NCBI GenBank assembly: GCA_965367725.1
Contig: CBDUKE010000002.1
Location: 7,091-71,090, forward strand
DNA from: an uncultured Maribacter sp.
GTDB taxonomy: Bacteria; Bacteroidota; Bacteroidia; Flavobacteriales; Flavobacteriaceae
DNA: 64,000 nucleotides
Reading direction: 5' to 3'
Shown here: one piece after another, positions 21,632 through 60,317 of the stretch
Layout of the letters: each line of letters opens with the position of its first letter
How positions within the stretch are numbered: position 1 is the stretch's first letter
Made by a program: the position numbers and the translations under genes
The notes under the pieces: generated by a model
The model's database searches: none
What the model was told of the DNA's origin: nothing
What the model saw: only the letters and a program-made list of their open reading frames with translations

Positions 21632-21647
21632 TGTAACAAATGTTACA
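21632..21647. promoter_or_regulatory. Palindromic operator TGTAACAAATGTTACA (site 1 of the family)
   Basis: Perfect inverted arms TGTAACA/TGTTACA. The site lies in the divergent region between the membrane protein (ATG 21581) and the class-V aminotransferase (ATG 21840). Confidence 0.6.
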
Positions 21648-21839
21648 AAGGTTGAAATCAAAATTTTCATTTCCTCCTTTTCATTGGCTTAACCAAAGCG
21701 TGTTTTTGGATAAACTTAGGCATTTGCTCAAATGTTTTATTTAAATTTAGGAAGGTATTATCTATATTTTTTTCATATATTTTAGTACCATTGACATTTA
21801 TTTGTTCATTGCTTTATTAGATTAAAAACAAACTATACT

Positions 21840-23342
21840 ATGGGTATTTCGTTACCAGGGCAAAAAACCATATCTACTGATTTGGAAGAATATTTTCAAC
21901 AGTTTAGAAGACACATTGTAGGAGTTGACCAAACTTTCCATTCTCCATACGGAGTGAAAAACATAATTTATGCAGATTGGACTGCTAGTGGCAGGTTATA
22001 TGGTCCCATAGAGCAAAAACTATTTCATGAAATTGGCCCAATGGTTGCAAATACGCATACTGAGACATCCTTTACCGGATCGGTAATGACCATGGCCTAT
22101 CACAAGGCACGCAAAATAATAAAGCAGCATGTAAATGCCAGTGAGGAAGATATACTGATAACGGTAGGAACCGGAATGACAGGTGCAGTAAATAAATTCC
22201 AAAGAATATTAGGGCTTAAGGTATCTGAAAATTTAAAAGAACATACAAATGTACCCGAAGCATTGAGACCTATAGTTTTTGTGTCCCATATGGAGCATCA
22301 TTCAAACCAAACTTCTTGGTTGGAGACCATTGCAAAGGTTGAGGTTATTCCTTGTGATGAAACTGGTTTGATATGTTTTGATAGTTTTCAAAAATTATTG
22401 GACAAGTATCAAGATAACCTTATAAAAATTGCTTCAATAACATCATGTTCCAACGTAACAGGAATTAAAACCGATTACCATAGAATTGCGAAAATGATCC
22501 ATCAAAATAACGGACTTTGTTTCGTTGATTTTGCATGTTCTGCGCCTTACGTGGAAATTGATATGCATCCTAAAAGCAAAGCGGAATATTTAGATGCAAT
22601 TTTCTTTTCTCCCCATAAGTTCTTGGGTGGTCCTGGCGCAAGTGGCGTATTGATATTCAATAAGAAATTATACAAAAATTTGGTTCCCGATAATCCAGGT
22701 GGTGGTACAGTCACTTATACCAATCCATGGGGAAACCACGATTATATTGATGATATAGAGACTAGGGAAGATGGGGGAACTCCAGGATTTTTACAGGCGA
22801 TTCGTGCGGCCTTTGCTATTCAATTGAAAGAAGAAATGGGAGTTAAGAAAATTCATGATAGGGAAAATGAAATAAATAAAACGATTTTTGAAAGTCTTTC
22901 CCAAATAGCTAATTTGCATATTCTGGCCGAGGAGCATCAAGAAAGATTGGGAATATTCTCTTTTTATATTGATGATGCACATTATAACCTGATCGTAAAA
23001 CTATTGAATGATCGTTTTGGCATCCAAACCCGGGGCGGCTGCTCTTGTGCTGGCACCTACGGGCACTTTTTGCTTCATGTAAATGAACTGACCTCAAAAG
23101 CAATAGAGCAGAAAATATTGGAGGGTTGCTTAATGGAAAGACCTGGATGGGTACGAATGTCGATTCACCCAACCATGACCAATGCAGAAGTTGATTTTAT
23201 CTGCAATGCCATAAAACAAGTTGCTTTGAATCATAAGGAATGGGGTAAAGACTATACACAAAATTTGGCCAAAAACGAGTTTGAACACAAAGAAGGCAAT
23301 GTGCAAGAACAAGAATTAGTAAGTAGTTGGTTCAATTCTTGA
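21840..23342 (+). CDS. Class V aminotransferase-fold PLP enzyme (cysteine desulfurase/selenocysteine lyase-like)
   Basis: 500 aa. PLP-lysine motif FSPHKFLGGPGASGVL and overall class-V pattern (SHMEHHSN, GGCSCAG near the C-terminus). Confidence 0.75.
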   Translation: MGISLPGQKTISTDLEEYFQQFRRHIVGVDQTFHSPYGVKNIIYADWTASGRLYGPIEQKLFHEIGPMVANTHTETSFTGSVMTMAYHKARKIIKQHVNASEEDILITVGTGMTGAVNKFQRILGLKVSENLKEHTNVPEALRPIVFVSHMEHHSNQTSWLETIAKVEVIPCDETGLICFDSFQKLLDKYQDNLIKIASITSCSNVTGIKTDYHRIAKMIHQNNGLCFVDFACSAPYVEIDMHPKSKAEYLDAIFFSPHKFLGGPGASGVLIFNKKLYKNLVPDNPGGGTVTYTNPWGNHDYIDDIETREDGGTPGFLQAIRAAFAIQLKEEMGVKKIHDRENEINKTIFESLSQIANLHILAEEHQERLGIFSFYIDDAHYNLIVKLLNDRFGIQTRGGCSCAGTYGHFLLHVNELTSKAIEQKILEGCLMERPGWVRMSIHPTMTNAEVDFICNAIKQVALNHKEWGKDYTQNLAKNEFEHKEGNVQEQELVSSWFNS

Positions 23343-23351
23343 TTTACCTTT

Positions 23352-26300
23352 TTATTCCAGACTTGAAGGTGTAATGGTAAAACTGTAAGCGTATGGTTTG
23401 GGCGAAATCGTATAGGCTTCGTGTACCAAACGCCCCCAAGAGGTATCGCCACCTACACCCATTTGTTGCAAATCGATATTCCATTGTACGGTTTGACCAA
23501 TTTTAATTTCAGCCCCATGTTTAGAAGTAACGGGTACCAGGCCAGAAGCTGACTTAACCGCTTCACTAGTATTAAAATCAATCTCTGTCATGGTAAAGGG
23601 CCATGTACTGGCATTCAACAATTGTTCTGATGATACCTTAAGTGCCATGGCAGTGGACGAAACTTCCATCCATCGCACATCTGTTTTATTCCCGGTTTCC
23701 TGCGGTCTTGGATAACGATGGAATTGGTCGTTGATCTTACCCGTATACAAACCCGTTTTCACGCCGGTTTTTCTATCCCAGTAACTTTCTTCAGGCCCCT
23801 TGCCATACCAAGAAACTTCTTTGTACTCATTGGCTAAAGTAAGGTACATACCCAAACGAGGTATATTAGGTAAATCTTCTTTCATTGGCAGAAATTCGTA
23901 CGCCACAGCTAATTGGCCGTTGGGTTGAAGTGAATACCTAACCAATACTTTGGCTTCATGACCAGGAAGGTCATAACGTACCTGATAAGTAACCTTATTT
24001 TCAATAGTAATGGGTTTACTTACCAAAGAGGCCTGGTAGTTATACGAAGCATCTTGCCATATTTTGGCCCATTTATCCATGCCATTACCCAAATCGTTAT
24101 CGGTTGGTGGGCGCCAAAAATTAGGGCAAATGGGTTGTGTTGTAATCTGCTTGCCGCTATGTGACCATGACACAATTTCCCCCGACTTAGCGTCAATTTT
24201 CAGGTTTACATTTTTGTTTACTATTTCAATTTCCAATGCTGAAGATTTAATTTTCAAACTTTCGCCACCCTGAACTGGTTCAGCTATTTTTTGAACATCC
24301 CTGTTCAGTACAAATTGGTCCCAGGCTACTTCATGTCCCTTGGGAATCATAGTTGTAGCTTCCTTTTGAATTAAACTTACCTCAAGAATATATTCATTGT
24401 TGGCTTTGAAAACAGTTGGAATCTTATCAAAATATGCATTTAAGGATTGCCTGGGTTGTACATTCAAACTGGGATTTGTCTGTTGTGCTATTTCTTTACC
24501 ATTCTTCAATATCTTAACTCTTATTTCCTTGTCTGAAAGATCTGAGAAGAAGTTTTTGTTCTCAATCACAACTACGCCATTTAAGTCATACTTGAACTGT
24601 ACTGGTTCATAAACTTTTTTCACTTCAGATAAATGTGGATGCGGATTTCGGTATGGGTCGACCAAGCCGTTATTGAGGAAATTCCCATCTGTAGGTAAAT
24701 CAGGATGAAAGTCCTGTCCGTAGGCCAAATATGGTAACCCTTCATCATTCTTATACTCCAAACTTTGATCTACCCAATCCCAAATAAAACCACCTTGTAG
24801 ATTGGGATATTTTTCGATGATATCCCAATAATCCTGAAGATTTCCTACTGAATTACCCATGGCATGGGCATATTCAATCATTATTGATGGTTTGTCTGAG
24901 TCCGATTTTCCATGTTCGATCAAGAATTCCGGTTTTGGGTACATAGGGCAGTATAGATCGGTGTAATCTTCCTTTCCTGCAGGTTCATATTGAACGATTC
25001 TATTATCATCGGCCTCTTTAAGCCATTTATAGGTCGCTTTGAAAATTTCACCTTCACCAGCCTCATTTCCCAAGGACCACGAATAAATACTGGGATGGTT
25101 TCTATCCCGGTAAAACATACGTTGTGTACGGGATAAATGGGCTTTGTACCAAGAAAGCTCATTGCCAATCTGTGTTTCTTTATCAATGGCCAGTGGATGG
25201 CTCTCAATATTGGCCTCATCAACAACATAGAGTCCGTAGGTATCGCAAAGTTCCAGCCAATAGGGGTCGTTTGGATAGTGTGAACTTCGAACCGCATTGA
25301 TGTTGTTCTGTTTCATTAACGCAATATCCCTTTCCATAGACTCCTTGGAGACTACGTGCCCTGTGTATGGGTCAGTTTCATGCCTATCCACTCCTTTGAT
25401 GTAAATGGCTTTACCGTTGATCAGTACTTGGCTATTCTTTATCTCGACCTTTTTGAATCCGACTTTCCTGTTTAGATATTGATTGTTTTTTGGGTTGCTT
25501 TCGTCTTCCAAGGATATCTTCAAAGTATATAGGTTAGGTTGTTCTGCCGACCATTGTTTTACCTCTTTTACGATATCATTAAAAACGATATCGATTATTG
25601 AATCTTTTGGGAGTTCAATCGTTTTTTCAGTGGTGAAGACAGATTTATTCCCATCCAACATTTCTAAGGCAACAATTCTGGAGGCAACATCATTTGTCGT
25701 GTTTTTTAAGGATATGGTTCCTCTGAATATCCCATTGGAATACGTATCATCCAAATTAGTGTAGGCATGATAGTCCGATATAAAAGCCTTTGGTTGGGAA
25801 TAGAGGTAAACATCACGCTCTATCCCACTCATGCGCAGCATATCCTGACTCTCTAGGTAGCTGGCATCACTCCATCGAAACATTTGCAGGGCAAAAACAT
25901 TTGTACCTTCTTTTAAAAATGGGGTGATGTTGAATTCTGTCGGCGTTTTGCTTCCTTGTGAATAGCCCACATAGTTTCCATTCACATATAAATATAAGGC
26001 TGACTTAGCGCCTGCAAAATGAATGATAACATCTTCTAAAAGAAATTCTTTGTTCAATTTTATTTCCCTGCGATAAGTGCCAACGGGATTATAATCTTCG
26101 GGCGCTTGAGGCCATTTGGTATCAAAAGGATATCGTTCATCCAAATAAATAGGGTAGTCATAACCCGCTACCTCCCAATTGGCAGGAACTGGAATGGTAC
26201 CCCAATCAGAGTCATCAAAATTTACATTTTGAAAAGTGGTCGGCCGTTTTTTTGGGTCTTTAACAAAATGGAATTTCCACTCGCCATTAAGGCTTAAAAA

Positions 26301-60210: not shown

Positions 60211-60282
60211 AATTCTAAGAATACATATATAATTATATGTTAATTTGAAAGTCTAAAATTAGGTTTTACTATTACTTTTAAA

Positions 60283-60298
60283 TATGACAATTATCATA
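60283..60298. promoter_or_regulatory. Second palindrome type TATGACAATTATCATA, promoter-proximal to FeS-NrfD module 1
   Basis: It matches 38789-38804 at 14 of 16 positions. It has the same relative position, between the GTAAC site and the operon start. Confidence 0.4.
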
Positions 60299-60301
60299 TT
60301 T

Positions 60302-60317
60302 GGTAACATATGTTACA
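60302..60317. promoter_or_regulatory. Palindromic operator GGTAACATATGTTACA (site 6)
   Basis: The GTAAC-N4-GTTAC core is perfect. It lies 92 bp upstream of the FeS subunit ATG (60210). Confidence 0.55.

Follow-up and report, generated by a model that had tools for sequence, protein, structure and literature searches.

Which protein recognises a short palindrome that recurs in front of sulfur, respiratory and efflux operons, and to which signal would it respond? This question is raised by a stretch of 64,000 nucleotides from an uncultured Maribacter sp. (Flavobacteriaceae; assembly GCA_965367725.1, contig CBDUKE010000002.1, positions 7,091 to 71,090 of the forward strand), in the following called the window. 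From the letters of the window, an earlier note (the original prediction) had listed six perfect copies of GTAAC-N4-GTTAC, all intergenic, and had joined the operons behind them into one candidate regulon responding to sulfide or sulfane sulfur. In this study, we searched the window and related loci for this GTAAC box, analyzed the promoters and genes behind it, and compared the candidate regulator with known systems. Taken as a whole, it is quite probable that the palindromes are the sites of the Crp/Fnr activator encoded at 29710-30342, and that its regulon is centred on heterotrophic sulfide oxidation.

Occurrence and conservation of the GTAAC box

An exact search of the window returned precisely the six copies of GTAAC-N4-GTTAC listed before and no others (21633, 30450, 36352, 38820, 45445, and 60303), while 0.03 copies are expected and none of 100 dinucleotide-preserving shuffles of the window reached six. 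The flanking bases and start-codon distances given for them (51, 193, 57, 56, 45, and 92 bp) were correct on re-measurement. When one mismatch was allowed, only two further matches were obtained, at 40664 and 42714, which are the two copies that had been described as degenerate. With a weight matrix derived from the 229 sites found in other genomes, the eight sites scored 16.0 to 25.3 (16.5 for 40664 and 16.0 for 42714), the next best position of the window scored 5.0, and shuffled sequence contained 0.1 sites with a score of at least 12. None of the eight lies within a gene, although coding sequence makes up ~88% of the window.

For comparison, 80 loci carrying an orthologue of the regulator gene were used (~20 kb each, 1.41 Mb in total), representing ~20 named genera including Maribacter, Dokdonia, Cellulophaga, Zobellia, Kordia, Psychroserpens, Mesoflavibacter, Altibacter, Robertkochia, Aquimarina, Polaribacter, and Lutibacter. 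A metagenomic set comprised 80 relatives of the FeS-NrfD operon of the window, 70 of them with sufficient upstream sequence; L-numbers (L001-L160) designate these 160 related loci. The 80 orthologous loci contain 229 exact boxes, and of these plus the six of the window 230 of 235 are intergenic despite a coding density of 84%. Thus, in the comparison of intergenic and coding density that had been proposed for related genomes, 98% of the boxes fall into the 16% non-coding DNA. An exact box was also present in 22 of the 70 FeS-NrfD relatives. The six palindromes are real, conserved sites.

The position of the box relative to the regulator gene is conserved as well. In 70 of 79 evaluable loci a box lies at most 320 bp downstream of the regulator stop codon, in 51 of those at most 20 bp, and it stays there although the next gene varies (persulfide dioxygenase-rhodanese fusion, TauE, YeeE/YedE, or SulP). 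Furthermore, 21 of 78 loci have a box in front of the regulator gene or, where this forms an operon with a DUF983 gene, in front of that operon. Genes following a box were clustered and representatives annotated by Pfam and NCBIfam, which left some singleton targets without annotation. The most conserved target, in 63 loci, is a protein with a metallo-beta-lactamase (MBL) fold and two rhodanese domains, i.e., a persulfide dioxygenase-sulfurtransferase fusion. It is followed by the TauE/SafE sulfite exporter (41 loci), sulfide:quinone reductase (SQR; 16), a DUF983 protein (14), SorA-like sulfite dehydrogenase (13), YeeE/YedE-type sulfur transport (Sulf_transp; 12), 1-Cys peroxiredoxin (7), the outer-membrane factor OEP of an RND operon (5), SulP (5), a TehB-like methyltransferase (5), cytochrome bd subunit I (2), and a cytochrome c/Tll0287 protein (2). 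The footprint of orthologous upstream regions, asked for with the original prediction, therefore shows the box in front of SQR, persulfide dioxygenase-rhodanese, TauE, SorA, and YeeE/YedE genes across genera.

Several loci carry tandem exact boxes, namely L028 (10638 and 10655), L095 and L098 (-169 and -147 from the FeS gene), L052 (14731/14788), and L076 (15040/15099), the two starts being 17, 22, or 57-59 bp apart. In Cellulophaga, a cytochrome bd operon and a SorA-like gene flank the tandem boxes. Pairs like these suggest cooperative sites or dual promoters.

Promoter geometry

For the analysis of promoters, 199 of them were oriented toward the downstream gene and columns were counted from the box start. 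The box flanks are not conserved beyond ~3 nt, but a second conserved block follows, in which +36 is T (92%), +37 is A (82%), and +40 to +42 are T (87-94%), then G/A. This block is the Bacteroidota -7 element TAnnTTTG. TAnnTTT[G/A] begins exactly at +36 in 178 of 228 sites, compared with 0.78 expected from the background frequency of the element, so that the gap between box and -7 element is exactly 22 nt and the palindrome centre lies 29.5 bp upstream of T-12. Since the -7 element of Flavobacterium johnsoniae is numbered T-12 A-11 ... G-5 (PMC6847099), the fixed spacing puts the box centre at -41.5. The box is thus a two-fold symmetric 5-N4-5 sequence at the activator position of Crp/Fnr proteins. 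The same class II arrangement is known from FNR, and it agrees to the base with the canonical class II promoter of NtcA, which consists of GTA-N8-TAC at -41.5 plus TAN3T (PMC3898017); GTAAC-N4-GTTAC itself fits GTA-N8-TAC.

The sites of the window are arranged as follows.

21633-21646, minus strand: GTAAC box whose -7 box, TAATATTA at 21603-21610, is weak; likely target is the gene of a 227-aa membrane protein
30450-30463, plus strand: GTAAC box in canonical class II geometry, -7 box TAATTTTA at 30486-30493; predicted to drive the operon of the persulfide dioxygenase remnant and rhodanese
36352-36365, minus strand: GTAAC box with near-canonical -7 box TATTTTCG at 36321-36328; predicted to drive the SorA-like gene and its CxxCH cytochrome subunit
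38820-38833, minus strand: GTAAC box in the SQR promoter, at an upstream (class I-like) position of about -71.5
45445-45458, plus strand: GTAAC box in canonical class II geometry, -7 box TAATTTTG at 45481-45488; precedes the efflux operon
60303-60316, minus strand: GTAAC box in the FeS-NrfD promoter, at an upstream (class I-like) position of about -60.5
40664-40677, plus strand: one-mismatch GTAAC box GTAACAAAGGTTGC, followed at +36 by CAACTTTG; precedes the first DUF2202 gene
42714-42727, plus strand: one-mismatch GTAAC box GTAACATTTGTCAC, 52 bp upstream of an FNR-like box at 42766-42779

A spacing that is rigid to the base pair across ~20 genera points to a stereospecific contact with RNA polymerase and thereby to activation rather than occlusion, and the regulator is likely to act as a transcription activator. 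According to this model, the dimeric regulator would bind the box at -41.5, replace the -33 element and contact RNA polymerase directly (class II activation), and GTAAC promoters would need no -33 element. Alternatively, the regulator could be a repressor which blocks the -33 region and is freed by sulfane sulfur in the manner of SqrR, BigR, and CstR. The well-studied dedicated persulfide sensors, FisR excepted, are repressors, the box overlaps the place expected for a -33 element, and the weakly enriched 'TG' directly downstream of the box (positions 14-15) could be what is left of a -33 element. Against this, occlusion tolerates variable positions, whereas the -7 spacing kept in 178 of 228 promoters is a hallmark of contacts between activator and polymerase, and the upstream positions (-60.5, -71.5, and about -93.5) lie within 1 bp of those known for class I activation by CRP and would not occlude the polymerase. 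Repression is consequently considered improbable.

The geometry also bears on the possibility that the palindromes are non-regulatory, i.e., a dispersed intergenic repeat, a part of terminators, or the outcome of a bias related to restriction and modification. Several sites come after the T-run or hairpin of the preceding gene, and three are located within duplicated intergenic modules near the DUF2202 genes. However, a repeat is hard to reconcile with flanks that vary beyond the nearest few bases, the distance is fixed to promoters and not to terminators, the same functional gene families follow in distant genera, and a restriction-avoidance bias would not concentrate the copies in non-coding DNA to the extent found. 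This explanation is hardly credible, and we regard the palindromes as operator sites.

The duplicated modules lie at 40656-40858, 41670-41818, and 42647-42934, upstream of two DUF2202 genes and a DUF6799 gene. Each comprises TTTGTTTGGTTGTTGA, a hairpin terminator with T-run, and a GTAAC-like box that is intact, degenerate or lost. The modules share a 70-nt leader with 89% conservation between two copies, and the leaders in the DUF2202/DUF6799 modules are long (~190-230 nt).

The adjacent Crp/Fnr regulator

29710-30342, plus strand: Crp/Fnr-family regulator of 210 aa with a cNMP-binding-like beta-roll, a C-terminal helix-turn-helix (HTH), and the recognition helix TSRVVVSRLL

The domains were assigned by Pfam matches to PF00027 cNMP_binding (37.2 bits, cut-off 27.5) and PF13545 HTH_Crp_2 (34 bits, cut-off 27), and residues 31-209 match the PDB structures of NtcA, CRP, and Vfr, which places the protein in the Crp/Fnr superfamily. 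Its NCBIfam equivalog scores stayed far under the respective cut-offs, with 53.8 bits vs 266 for CRP, 39.6 vs 245 for NtcA (TIGR03697), and 20.6 vs 228 for Fnr. Orthologues with 67-98% identity occur in ~20 Flavobacteriaceae genera, and the closest ones (96-98%) are from Maribacter or Flavobacteriaceae metagenome-assembled genomes (MAGs). Orthologues with 71-76% identity and the usual box positions were also found in two MAGs not assigned to Flavobacteriaceae, one labelled Arenicella (L020) and one labelled Saprospiraceae (L063); these are probably mis-binned contigs, while transfer is possible.

The recognition helix R-V-V-V-S-R is invariant and aligns with R180-E181-T-V-G-R185 of CRP and R-V-T-V-T-R of NtcA, so that all orthologues carry Val at the position of CRP Glu181. 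Residues 180 and 181 are described to co-vary with box positions, and loss of Glu181 to accompany the GTAAC box (Rodionov et al. 2005, PMC1274295). The Val helix of the regulator, as well as the Glu helix of the paralogues described below, agrees with this rule. The original prediction had argued that a 16-bp two-fold symmetric site suits a dimeric winged-HTH protein and had named the protein at 29710-30342; gene-box adjacency and class II spacing both favour that assignment, and judged from sequence the regulator very likely binds the GTAAC box.

The only cysteines of the regulator are Cys77, Cys83, and Cys84, conserved in 84/84, 82/84, and 81/84 sequences, respectively. In the HMMER alignment they correspond to I70, F76, and E77 of Escherichia coli CRP inside the cAMP phosphate-binding cassette, and K87/S88 of the regulator align with R82/S83 of CRP.

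A second, FNR-like box

In an unbiased scan, each of the 5,036 -7 elements was examined for a perfect 5-N4-5 palindrome spaced as the GTAAC box is. Half-sites obtained were GTAAC (180), ATGAT/ATGAC (34), and GTGAC (4), with at most 2 for any other. The window contains four ATGAY-N4-RTCAT boxes compared with 0.59 expected, and all four are exactly 36 nt from a -7 box.

38790-38803, minus strand: FNR-like box ATGACAAATGTCAT in the SQR promoter, at position -41.5; -7 box TAATTTTG at 38760-38767
38946-38959, plus strand: FNR-like box ATGATAAATGTCAT in the promoter of the FadL-like gene; -7 box TAATTTTG at 38982-38989
42766-42779, plus strand: FNR-like box upstream of the DUF6799 gene; -7 box TAATTTTA at 42802-42809
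60284-60297, minus strand: FNR-like box ATGATAATTGTCAT in the FeS-NrfD promoter, at position -41.5; -7 box TAATTTTA at 60254-60261

The ATGAY box upstream of the FadL-like gene is kept in six loci (L008, L009, L011, L012, L013, and L026). In relatives, ATGAY boxes precede genes for fused ccoNO, a HemN-like radical-SAM enzyme, Usp, the ribosome hibernation factor (hpf), PfkB, and an M50-CBS protease, and also for SQR, SorA, the FadL-like outer-membrane protein (OMP), and peroxiredoxin. They look like the marks of a separate FNR-like hypoxia and stress regulon, which overlaps the sulfur regulon at SQR, SorA, the FadL-like OMP, peroxiredoxin, and FeS-NrfD.

At three promoters of the window both boxes occur, the GTAAC box lying upstream of the ATGAY box by 30 bp (SQR), 19 bp (FeS-NrfD), and 52 bp (one-mismatch box in front of the DUF6799 gene, 42998-43684). 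Class I and class III promoters of CRP have spacings of 20, 30, and 51 bp, and the GTAAC offsets are within 1 bp of CRP class I positions. Both boxes at an offset of 19-20 bp were found in 20 of the 70 FeS-NrfD relatives, and an ATGAY box 36 bp from the -7 box in 47 of them. The tandem arrangement at SQR is common to L010 and L013, whereas in other genera SQR has the GTAAC box at -41.5. As the second box takes the -41.5 position, the SQR and FeS-NrfD operons are probably under a second regulator, too. Hence, the proposal of one single regulon stands as far as the shared GTAAC box is concerned and has to be amended for the SQR, FeS-NrfD, and DUF6799 promoters with their FNR-like box. At these promoters two signals, probably low oxygen and sulfide, would be required or combined.

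Paralogues of the regulator with 34-37% identity are encoded at L015:11264-11899, L043:18907-19500, and L051:15730-16368. Their helix SREVISRLLK keeps Glu181, the CC pair is missing, and the number of cysteines is only 1-2. They are candidate regulators of the TGA-type ATGAY box; the window contains no gene for a Glu-helix paralogue.

The existence of several Crp/Fnr paralogues in flavobacteria, together with the absence of a box upstream of the window regulator gene itself, could mean that another transcription factor reads the GTAAC box and that the adjacent Crp/Fnr protein is only a regulon member or a bystander. Yet gene and box stay together despite variable neighbours, the recognition helix suits a GTA...TAC box as in NtcA, and the paralogues seen carry a Glu-type helix suited to the ATGAY box. 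A different reader of the box is therefore very unlikely, and in the following the adjacent protein is treated as the regulator.

Relation to known regulators

The closest precedent for the box is HcpR2, whose predicted consensus is GTAACnnnnGTTAC and which was predicted for Clostridia, Bacteroides, Thermotogales, and Treponema with hcp as regulon (in Bacteroides only hcp) (Rodionov 2005, PMC1274295). Both systems share this consensus, the superfamily, the occurrence in Bacteroidota, the lack of an FNR-type N-terminal cysteine cluster, and the loss of Glu181. According to its published description, HcpR2 differs in controlling the hybrid-cluster protein in nitrosative stress, as opposed to sulfide oxidation here, and in having Pro at position 181, where the window regulator has Val. 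Among the recurrent target families of the 80 loci, whose singleton targets are only partly annotated, hcp was not found, and with residue 181 being Val and not Pro, membership in the HcpR2 (nitric oxide stress) group was rejected. A common origin is possible.

NtcA resembles the system in its GTA-N8-TAC box at -41.5, which lies 22 nt ahead of the TA in the -10/-7 element, in the lack of a -35/-33 element, and in its helix (R-V-T-V-T-R vs R-V-V-V-S-R), and it is the second-best PDB sequence match (E = 1.7e-10). It is a cyanobacterial protein that senses 2-oxoglutarate and serves nitrogen assimilation, whereas the window regulator has a Cys triad in its pocket and sulfur-oxidation genes as predicted targets. 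With FNR and CRP the regulator has in common the features of a dimeric activator, a 5-N4-5 palindrome, the class II position at -41.5, and upstream sites at 19, 30, and 52 bp that resemble class I/III spacings. Unlike FNR, it has no cysteines other than 77, 83, and 84 and thus no N-terminal Cys cluster; unlike CRP, which reads TGTGA with Glu181, it has Val at this position and a GTAAC box; and in contrast to both, the partner sigma factor is of the Bacteroidota type with the -7 element TAnnTTTG. The best structure match is PDB 3dv8 (E = 7e-12), an uncharacterised Crp/Fnr protein from structural genomics, which shares Cys77 and Cys83 but has Glu at the 181 position (R-E-V-I-T-R) and probably reads a different box.

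Dedicated persulfide sensors fall into three main classes according to a 2026 review, SqrR/BigR/YgaV (ArsR), CstR (CsoR), and FisR (sigma-54). SqrR, BigR, CstR, and FisR resemble the system described here in the kind of regulon, in a regulator gene adjoining its targets, and in conserved cysteines. They differ in fold, the window regulator having only Crp/Fnr domains and none of the ArsR, CsoR, or sigma-54 type, and in DNA motif. SqrR, BigR, and CstR act by derepression and FisR by sigma-54 activation, whereas class II activation is predicted for the window regulator.

Regulon, signal and proposed mechanism

The regulon core would form a route of sulfide oxidation, in which SQR produces sulfane sulfur from sulfide, the persulfide dioxygenase-rhodanese fusion turns this sulfane sulfur into sulfite or thiosulfate, the SorA-like sulfite dehydrogenase and the TauE exporter remove sulfite, and YeeE/YedE and SulP serve as transporters. 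An RND efflux pump, 1-Cys peroxiredoxin, cytochrome bd, and a small membrane protein would be lineage-specific additions. Known persulfide sensors control SQR, persulfide dioxygenase, sulfurtransferases, TauE, and YedE/YeeE (PMC13467558), and the regulon predicted from box positions in the 80 loci essentially equals this gene set. In marine sediment, sqr and pdo transcripts of Bacteroidota rise after addition of NaHS (PMC12345210). The original prediction of a sulfide- or sulfane-sulfur-responsive regulon is in accordance with these targets, the sulfide response being deduced from gene content. It is likely that the sites are functional sites of the adjacent regulator and control a sulfur-oxidation regulon.

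Regarding the signal, oxygen sensing of the FNR type was rejected, because the N-terminal cysteine cluster is absent and hypoxia genes are served by the separate FNR-like box. The ATGAY box at ccoNO, HemN-like, usp, and hpf genes indicates that oxygen limitation is seemingly handled by another factor. Given the regulon content and the hypoxia genes under the other box, modification by sulfane sulfur of the triad Cys77/Cys83/Cys84, which would replace the cAMP pocket, would be most economical; we consider the chances evenly balanced that sulfide-derived sulfane sulfur sensed in this way is the signal.

The same regulator and regulon could also respond to something else, either through an Fe-S or metal-binding triad sensing oxygen or redox state, to nitric oxide as an HcpR-type protein, or to sulfite, thiosulfate or cysteine in the beta-roll pocket. 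In the Bacillus subtilis-type Fnr, three cysteines hold the cluster, which provides a precedent. Moreover, the GTAAC box was first assigned to the nitric oxide stress regulator HcpR2, cytochrome bd and peroxiredoxin as targets suit a general response to respiratory poisons or oxidative stress, and sulfite-handling targets (TauE, SorA) are prominent. On the other hand, recurrent targets do not include hcp, the classic low-oxygen genes have their own box, the core targets coincide exactly with the genes under dedicated persulfide sensors, and the characterised sensors of this kind all rely on reactive cysteines. Such another signal is doubtful, and sulfane sulfur is preferred.

A number of results weigh against the overall explanation. 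The three cysteines could equally hold an Fe-S cluster or a metal, and the consensus belongs identically to the nitrosative-stress regulator HcpR2, so that the box alone is no pointer to sulfur. Among the six exact sites of the window, two have weak -7 boxes (21633 and 36352) and two are off -41.5 (38820 and 60303), and transcription starts were placed from the -7 box alone. The RND pump, an FA-hydroxylase-like protein, the HMA protein, and the DUF2202 proteins are targets with no obvious role in sulfur metabolism, and the persulfide dioxygenase gene is truncated in the window, so that the pathway may be incomplete in this genome. The loci were picked via the regulator gene, hence the enrichment of boxes near it is partly by design. 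An AlphaFold2 model from a 26-orthologue alignment reached a mean predicted local distance difference test score (pLDDT) of 58, with the beta-roll (37-98) below 50 because all homologues in the alignment are at least 73% identical, and it was not used.

The open-access literature searched contained no Crp/Fnr-type sensor of sulfide or sulfane sulfur and no regulation of sqr or pdo in Flavobacteria or Bacteroidetes, and sulfide-sensor reviews of 2022 and 2026 mention neither a Crp/Fnr-type nor a Bacteroidota sensor. The combination of a Crp/Fnr class II activator with a known box type, a sulfide-oxidation regulon, and a putative cysteine sensor is undescribed in this literature. The earlier statement that the system is not described for Bacteroidota thus holds for the regulon, while the consensus itself equals the HcpR2 box of 2005. 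As a tentative proposal, to which we give a little less than even weight, the regulator would represent a fourth class of dedicated sulfide/persulfide sensors on a Crp/Fnr scaffold, with a Cys triad switched on by sulfane sulfur, class II activation, and an FNR-like partner at tandem sites, which is distributed throughout marine Flavobacteriaceae and explains inducible sqr and pdo.

Flavobacteriaceae are among the commonest heterotrophs of coastal water, algae, and sediments, where exposure to sulfide is frequent, and heterotrophic sulfide oxidation via SQR and persulfide dioxygenase is increasingly regarded as a major sulfide sink (PMC12345210). For this process the model provides a regulator gene, a 14-16 bp operator, a promoter architecture at base-pair level, a core regulon in ~20 genera, and three candidate sensor cysteines, and the second box may integrate oxygen limitation. 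If true, persulfide sensing would extend to the Crp/Fnr family, a sulfide-inducible promoter/regulator pair would become available for Bacteroidota genetics, and the 227-aa membrane protein, Tll0287-cytochrome c, DUF2202, and DUF6799 proteins as well as the FeS-NrfD modules could be annotated via their regulon.

Genes under the boxes

The proteins of the window were annotated by Pfam and NCBIfam profile searches.

20898-21581, minus strand: membrane protein of 227 aa, matching no known family
30521-30636, plus strand: N-terminal remnant (~38 codons) of a persulfide dioxygenase-rhodanese fusion, which aligns with the intact L001 gene and then diverges
30770-31111, plus strand: rhodanese (Pfam)
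31332-31604, plus strand: HMA-domain protein (Pfam)
31601-32632, plus strand: cytochrome c/Tll0287-like protein (Pfam)
35075-36295, minus strand: SorA-like sulfite dehydrogenase (molybdoenzyme), followed by a CxxCH cytochrome subunit at 34599-35072
37469-38701, minus strand: SQR, type III sulfide:quinone reductase (NCBIfam, 659.7 bits, cut-off 525)
37138-37446, minus strand: TusE/DsrC-like protein (Pfam) of the SQR operon (36566-38701)
36566-37096, minus strand: DsrE-like protein (Pfam) of the SQR operon
39082-40497, plus strand: FadL-like outer-membrane protein gene with its own FNR-like box (38946-38959)
45504-46811, plus strand: outer-membrane factor (Pfam OEP), efflux operon (45504-51661)
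46831-47949, plus strand: membrane-fusion protein (Pfam HlyD_D23), efflux operon
48155-51349, plus strand: RND pump (Pfam ACR_tran), efflux operon
51356-51661, plus strand: open reading frame of 101 aa, apparently soluble and with no hydrophobic segment, last in the efflux operon
59218-60210, minus strand: DsrO/NrfC-like FeS protein (NCBIfam DsrO-like, 171 bits, below the cut-off of 200)
57859-59208, minus strand: DsrP/NrfD-like membrane protein (NCBIfam DsrP-like, 68 bits, below the cut-off of 350)
56960-57862, minus strand: protein of 300 aa without family, FeS-NrfD module 1 (56487-60210)
56487-56885, minus strand: cytochrome c, FeS-NrfD module 1

The 227-aa membrane protein is likely the target of site 21633, and the box upstream of its orthologues is kept in eight loci, seven of them of the Maribacter clade. 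The class-V aminotransferase, which had been named along with it, has no promoter at the right spacing and is not a clear direct target. This SufS-like protein of 500 aa (21840-23342) diverges from the site and adjoins it in nine loci. Among NCBIfam models, it shows weak likeness to that for the cysteine-desulfurase cargo in family 2A encapsulins, with 98 bits and thus far under the cut-off of 800.

Downstream of site 30450, the label 'MBL remnant' proved right, since alignment to L001 shows that the promoter and ~38 codons of the persulfide dioxygenase-rhodanese fusion were retained. The intact fusion of this close relative has 471 aa with an MBL fold and two rhodanese domains. After the remnant, the sequence changes into the stand-alone rhodanese (30521-30770 region); M. 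arenosus (L007) is similar but without the remnant, and has the same gene order of rhodanese, HMA, and Tll0287 proteins. The Tll0287/cytochrome c family is found directly downstream of a box also in L040 and L056.

The NCBIfam model matched by SQR is 'type III SQR, selenoprotein subtype'. As the reading frame has no in-frame stop, the window copy presumably carries Cys where selenocysteine would be. On the other side of site 38820, the FadL-like gene, which had been included as a target of the divergent region, has no -7 box at the required spacing for the GTAAC box, carries its own ATGAY box, and is not a clear direct target.

Orthologues of the OEP gene are found under the same box arrangement in Cellulophaga, Altibacter, Aequorivita, and Zhouia. 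For the last gene of the efflux operon, the assignment to DUF2892 found no confirmation, as neither Pfam (even at E = 0.01) nor NCBIfam gave a match.

A catalytic molybdopterin subunit is absent from the FeS-NrfD modules, which in NCBIfam come closest to DsrO/DsrP. Module 2 has its promoter beyond the window end. In both modules the FeS-NrfD genes are followed by a gene for one of two paralogous proteins of ~300 aa (56960-57862 and 60645-61517), which have a signal peptide and a C-terminal transmembrane helix and were assigned to no family.

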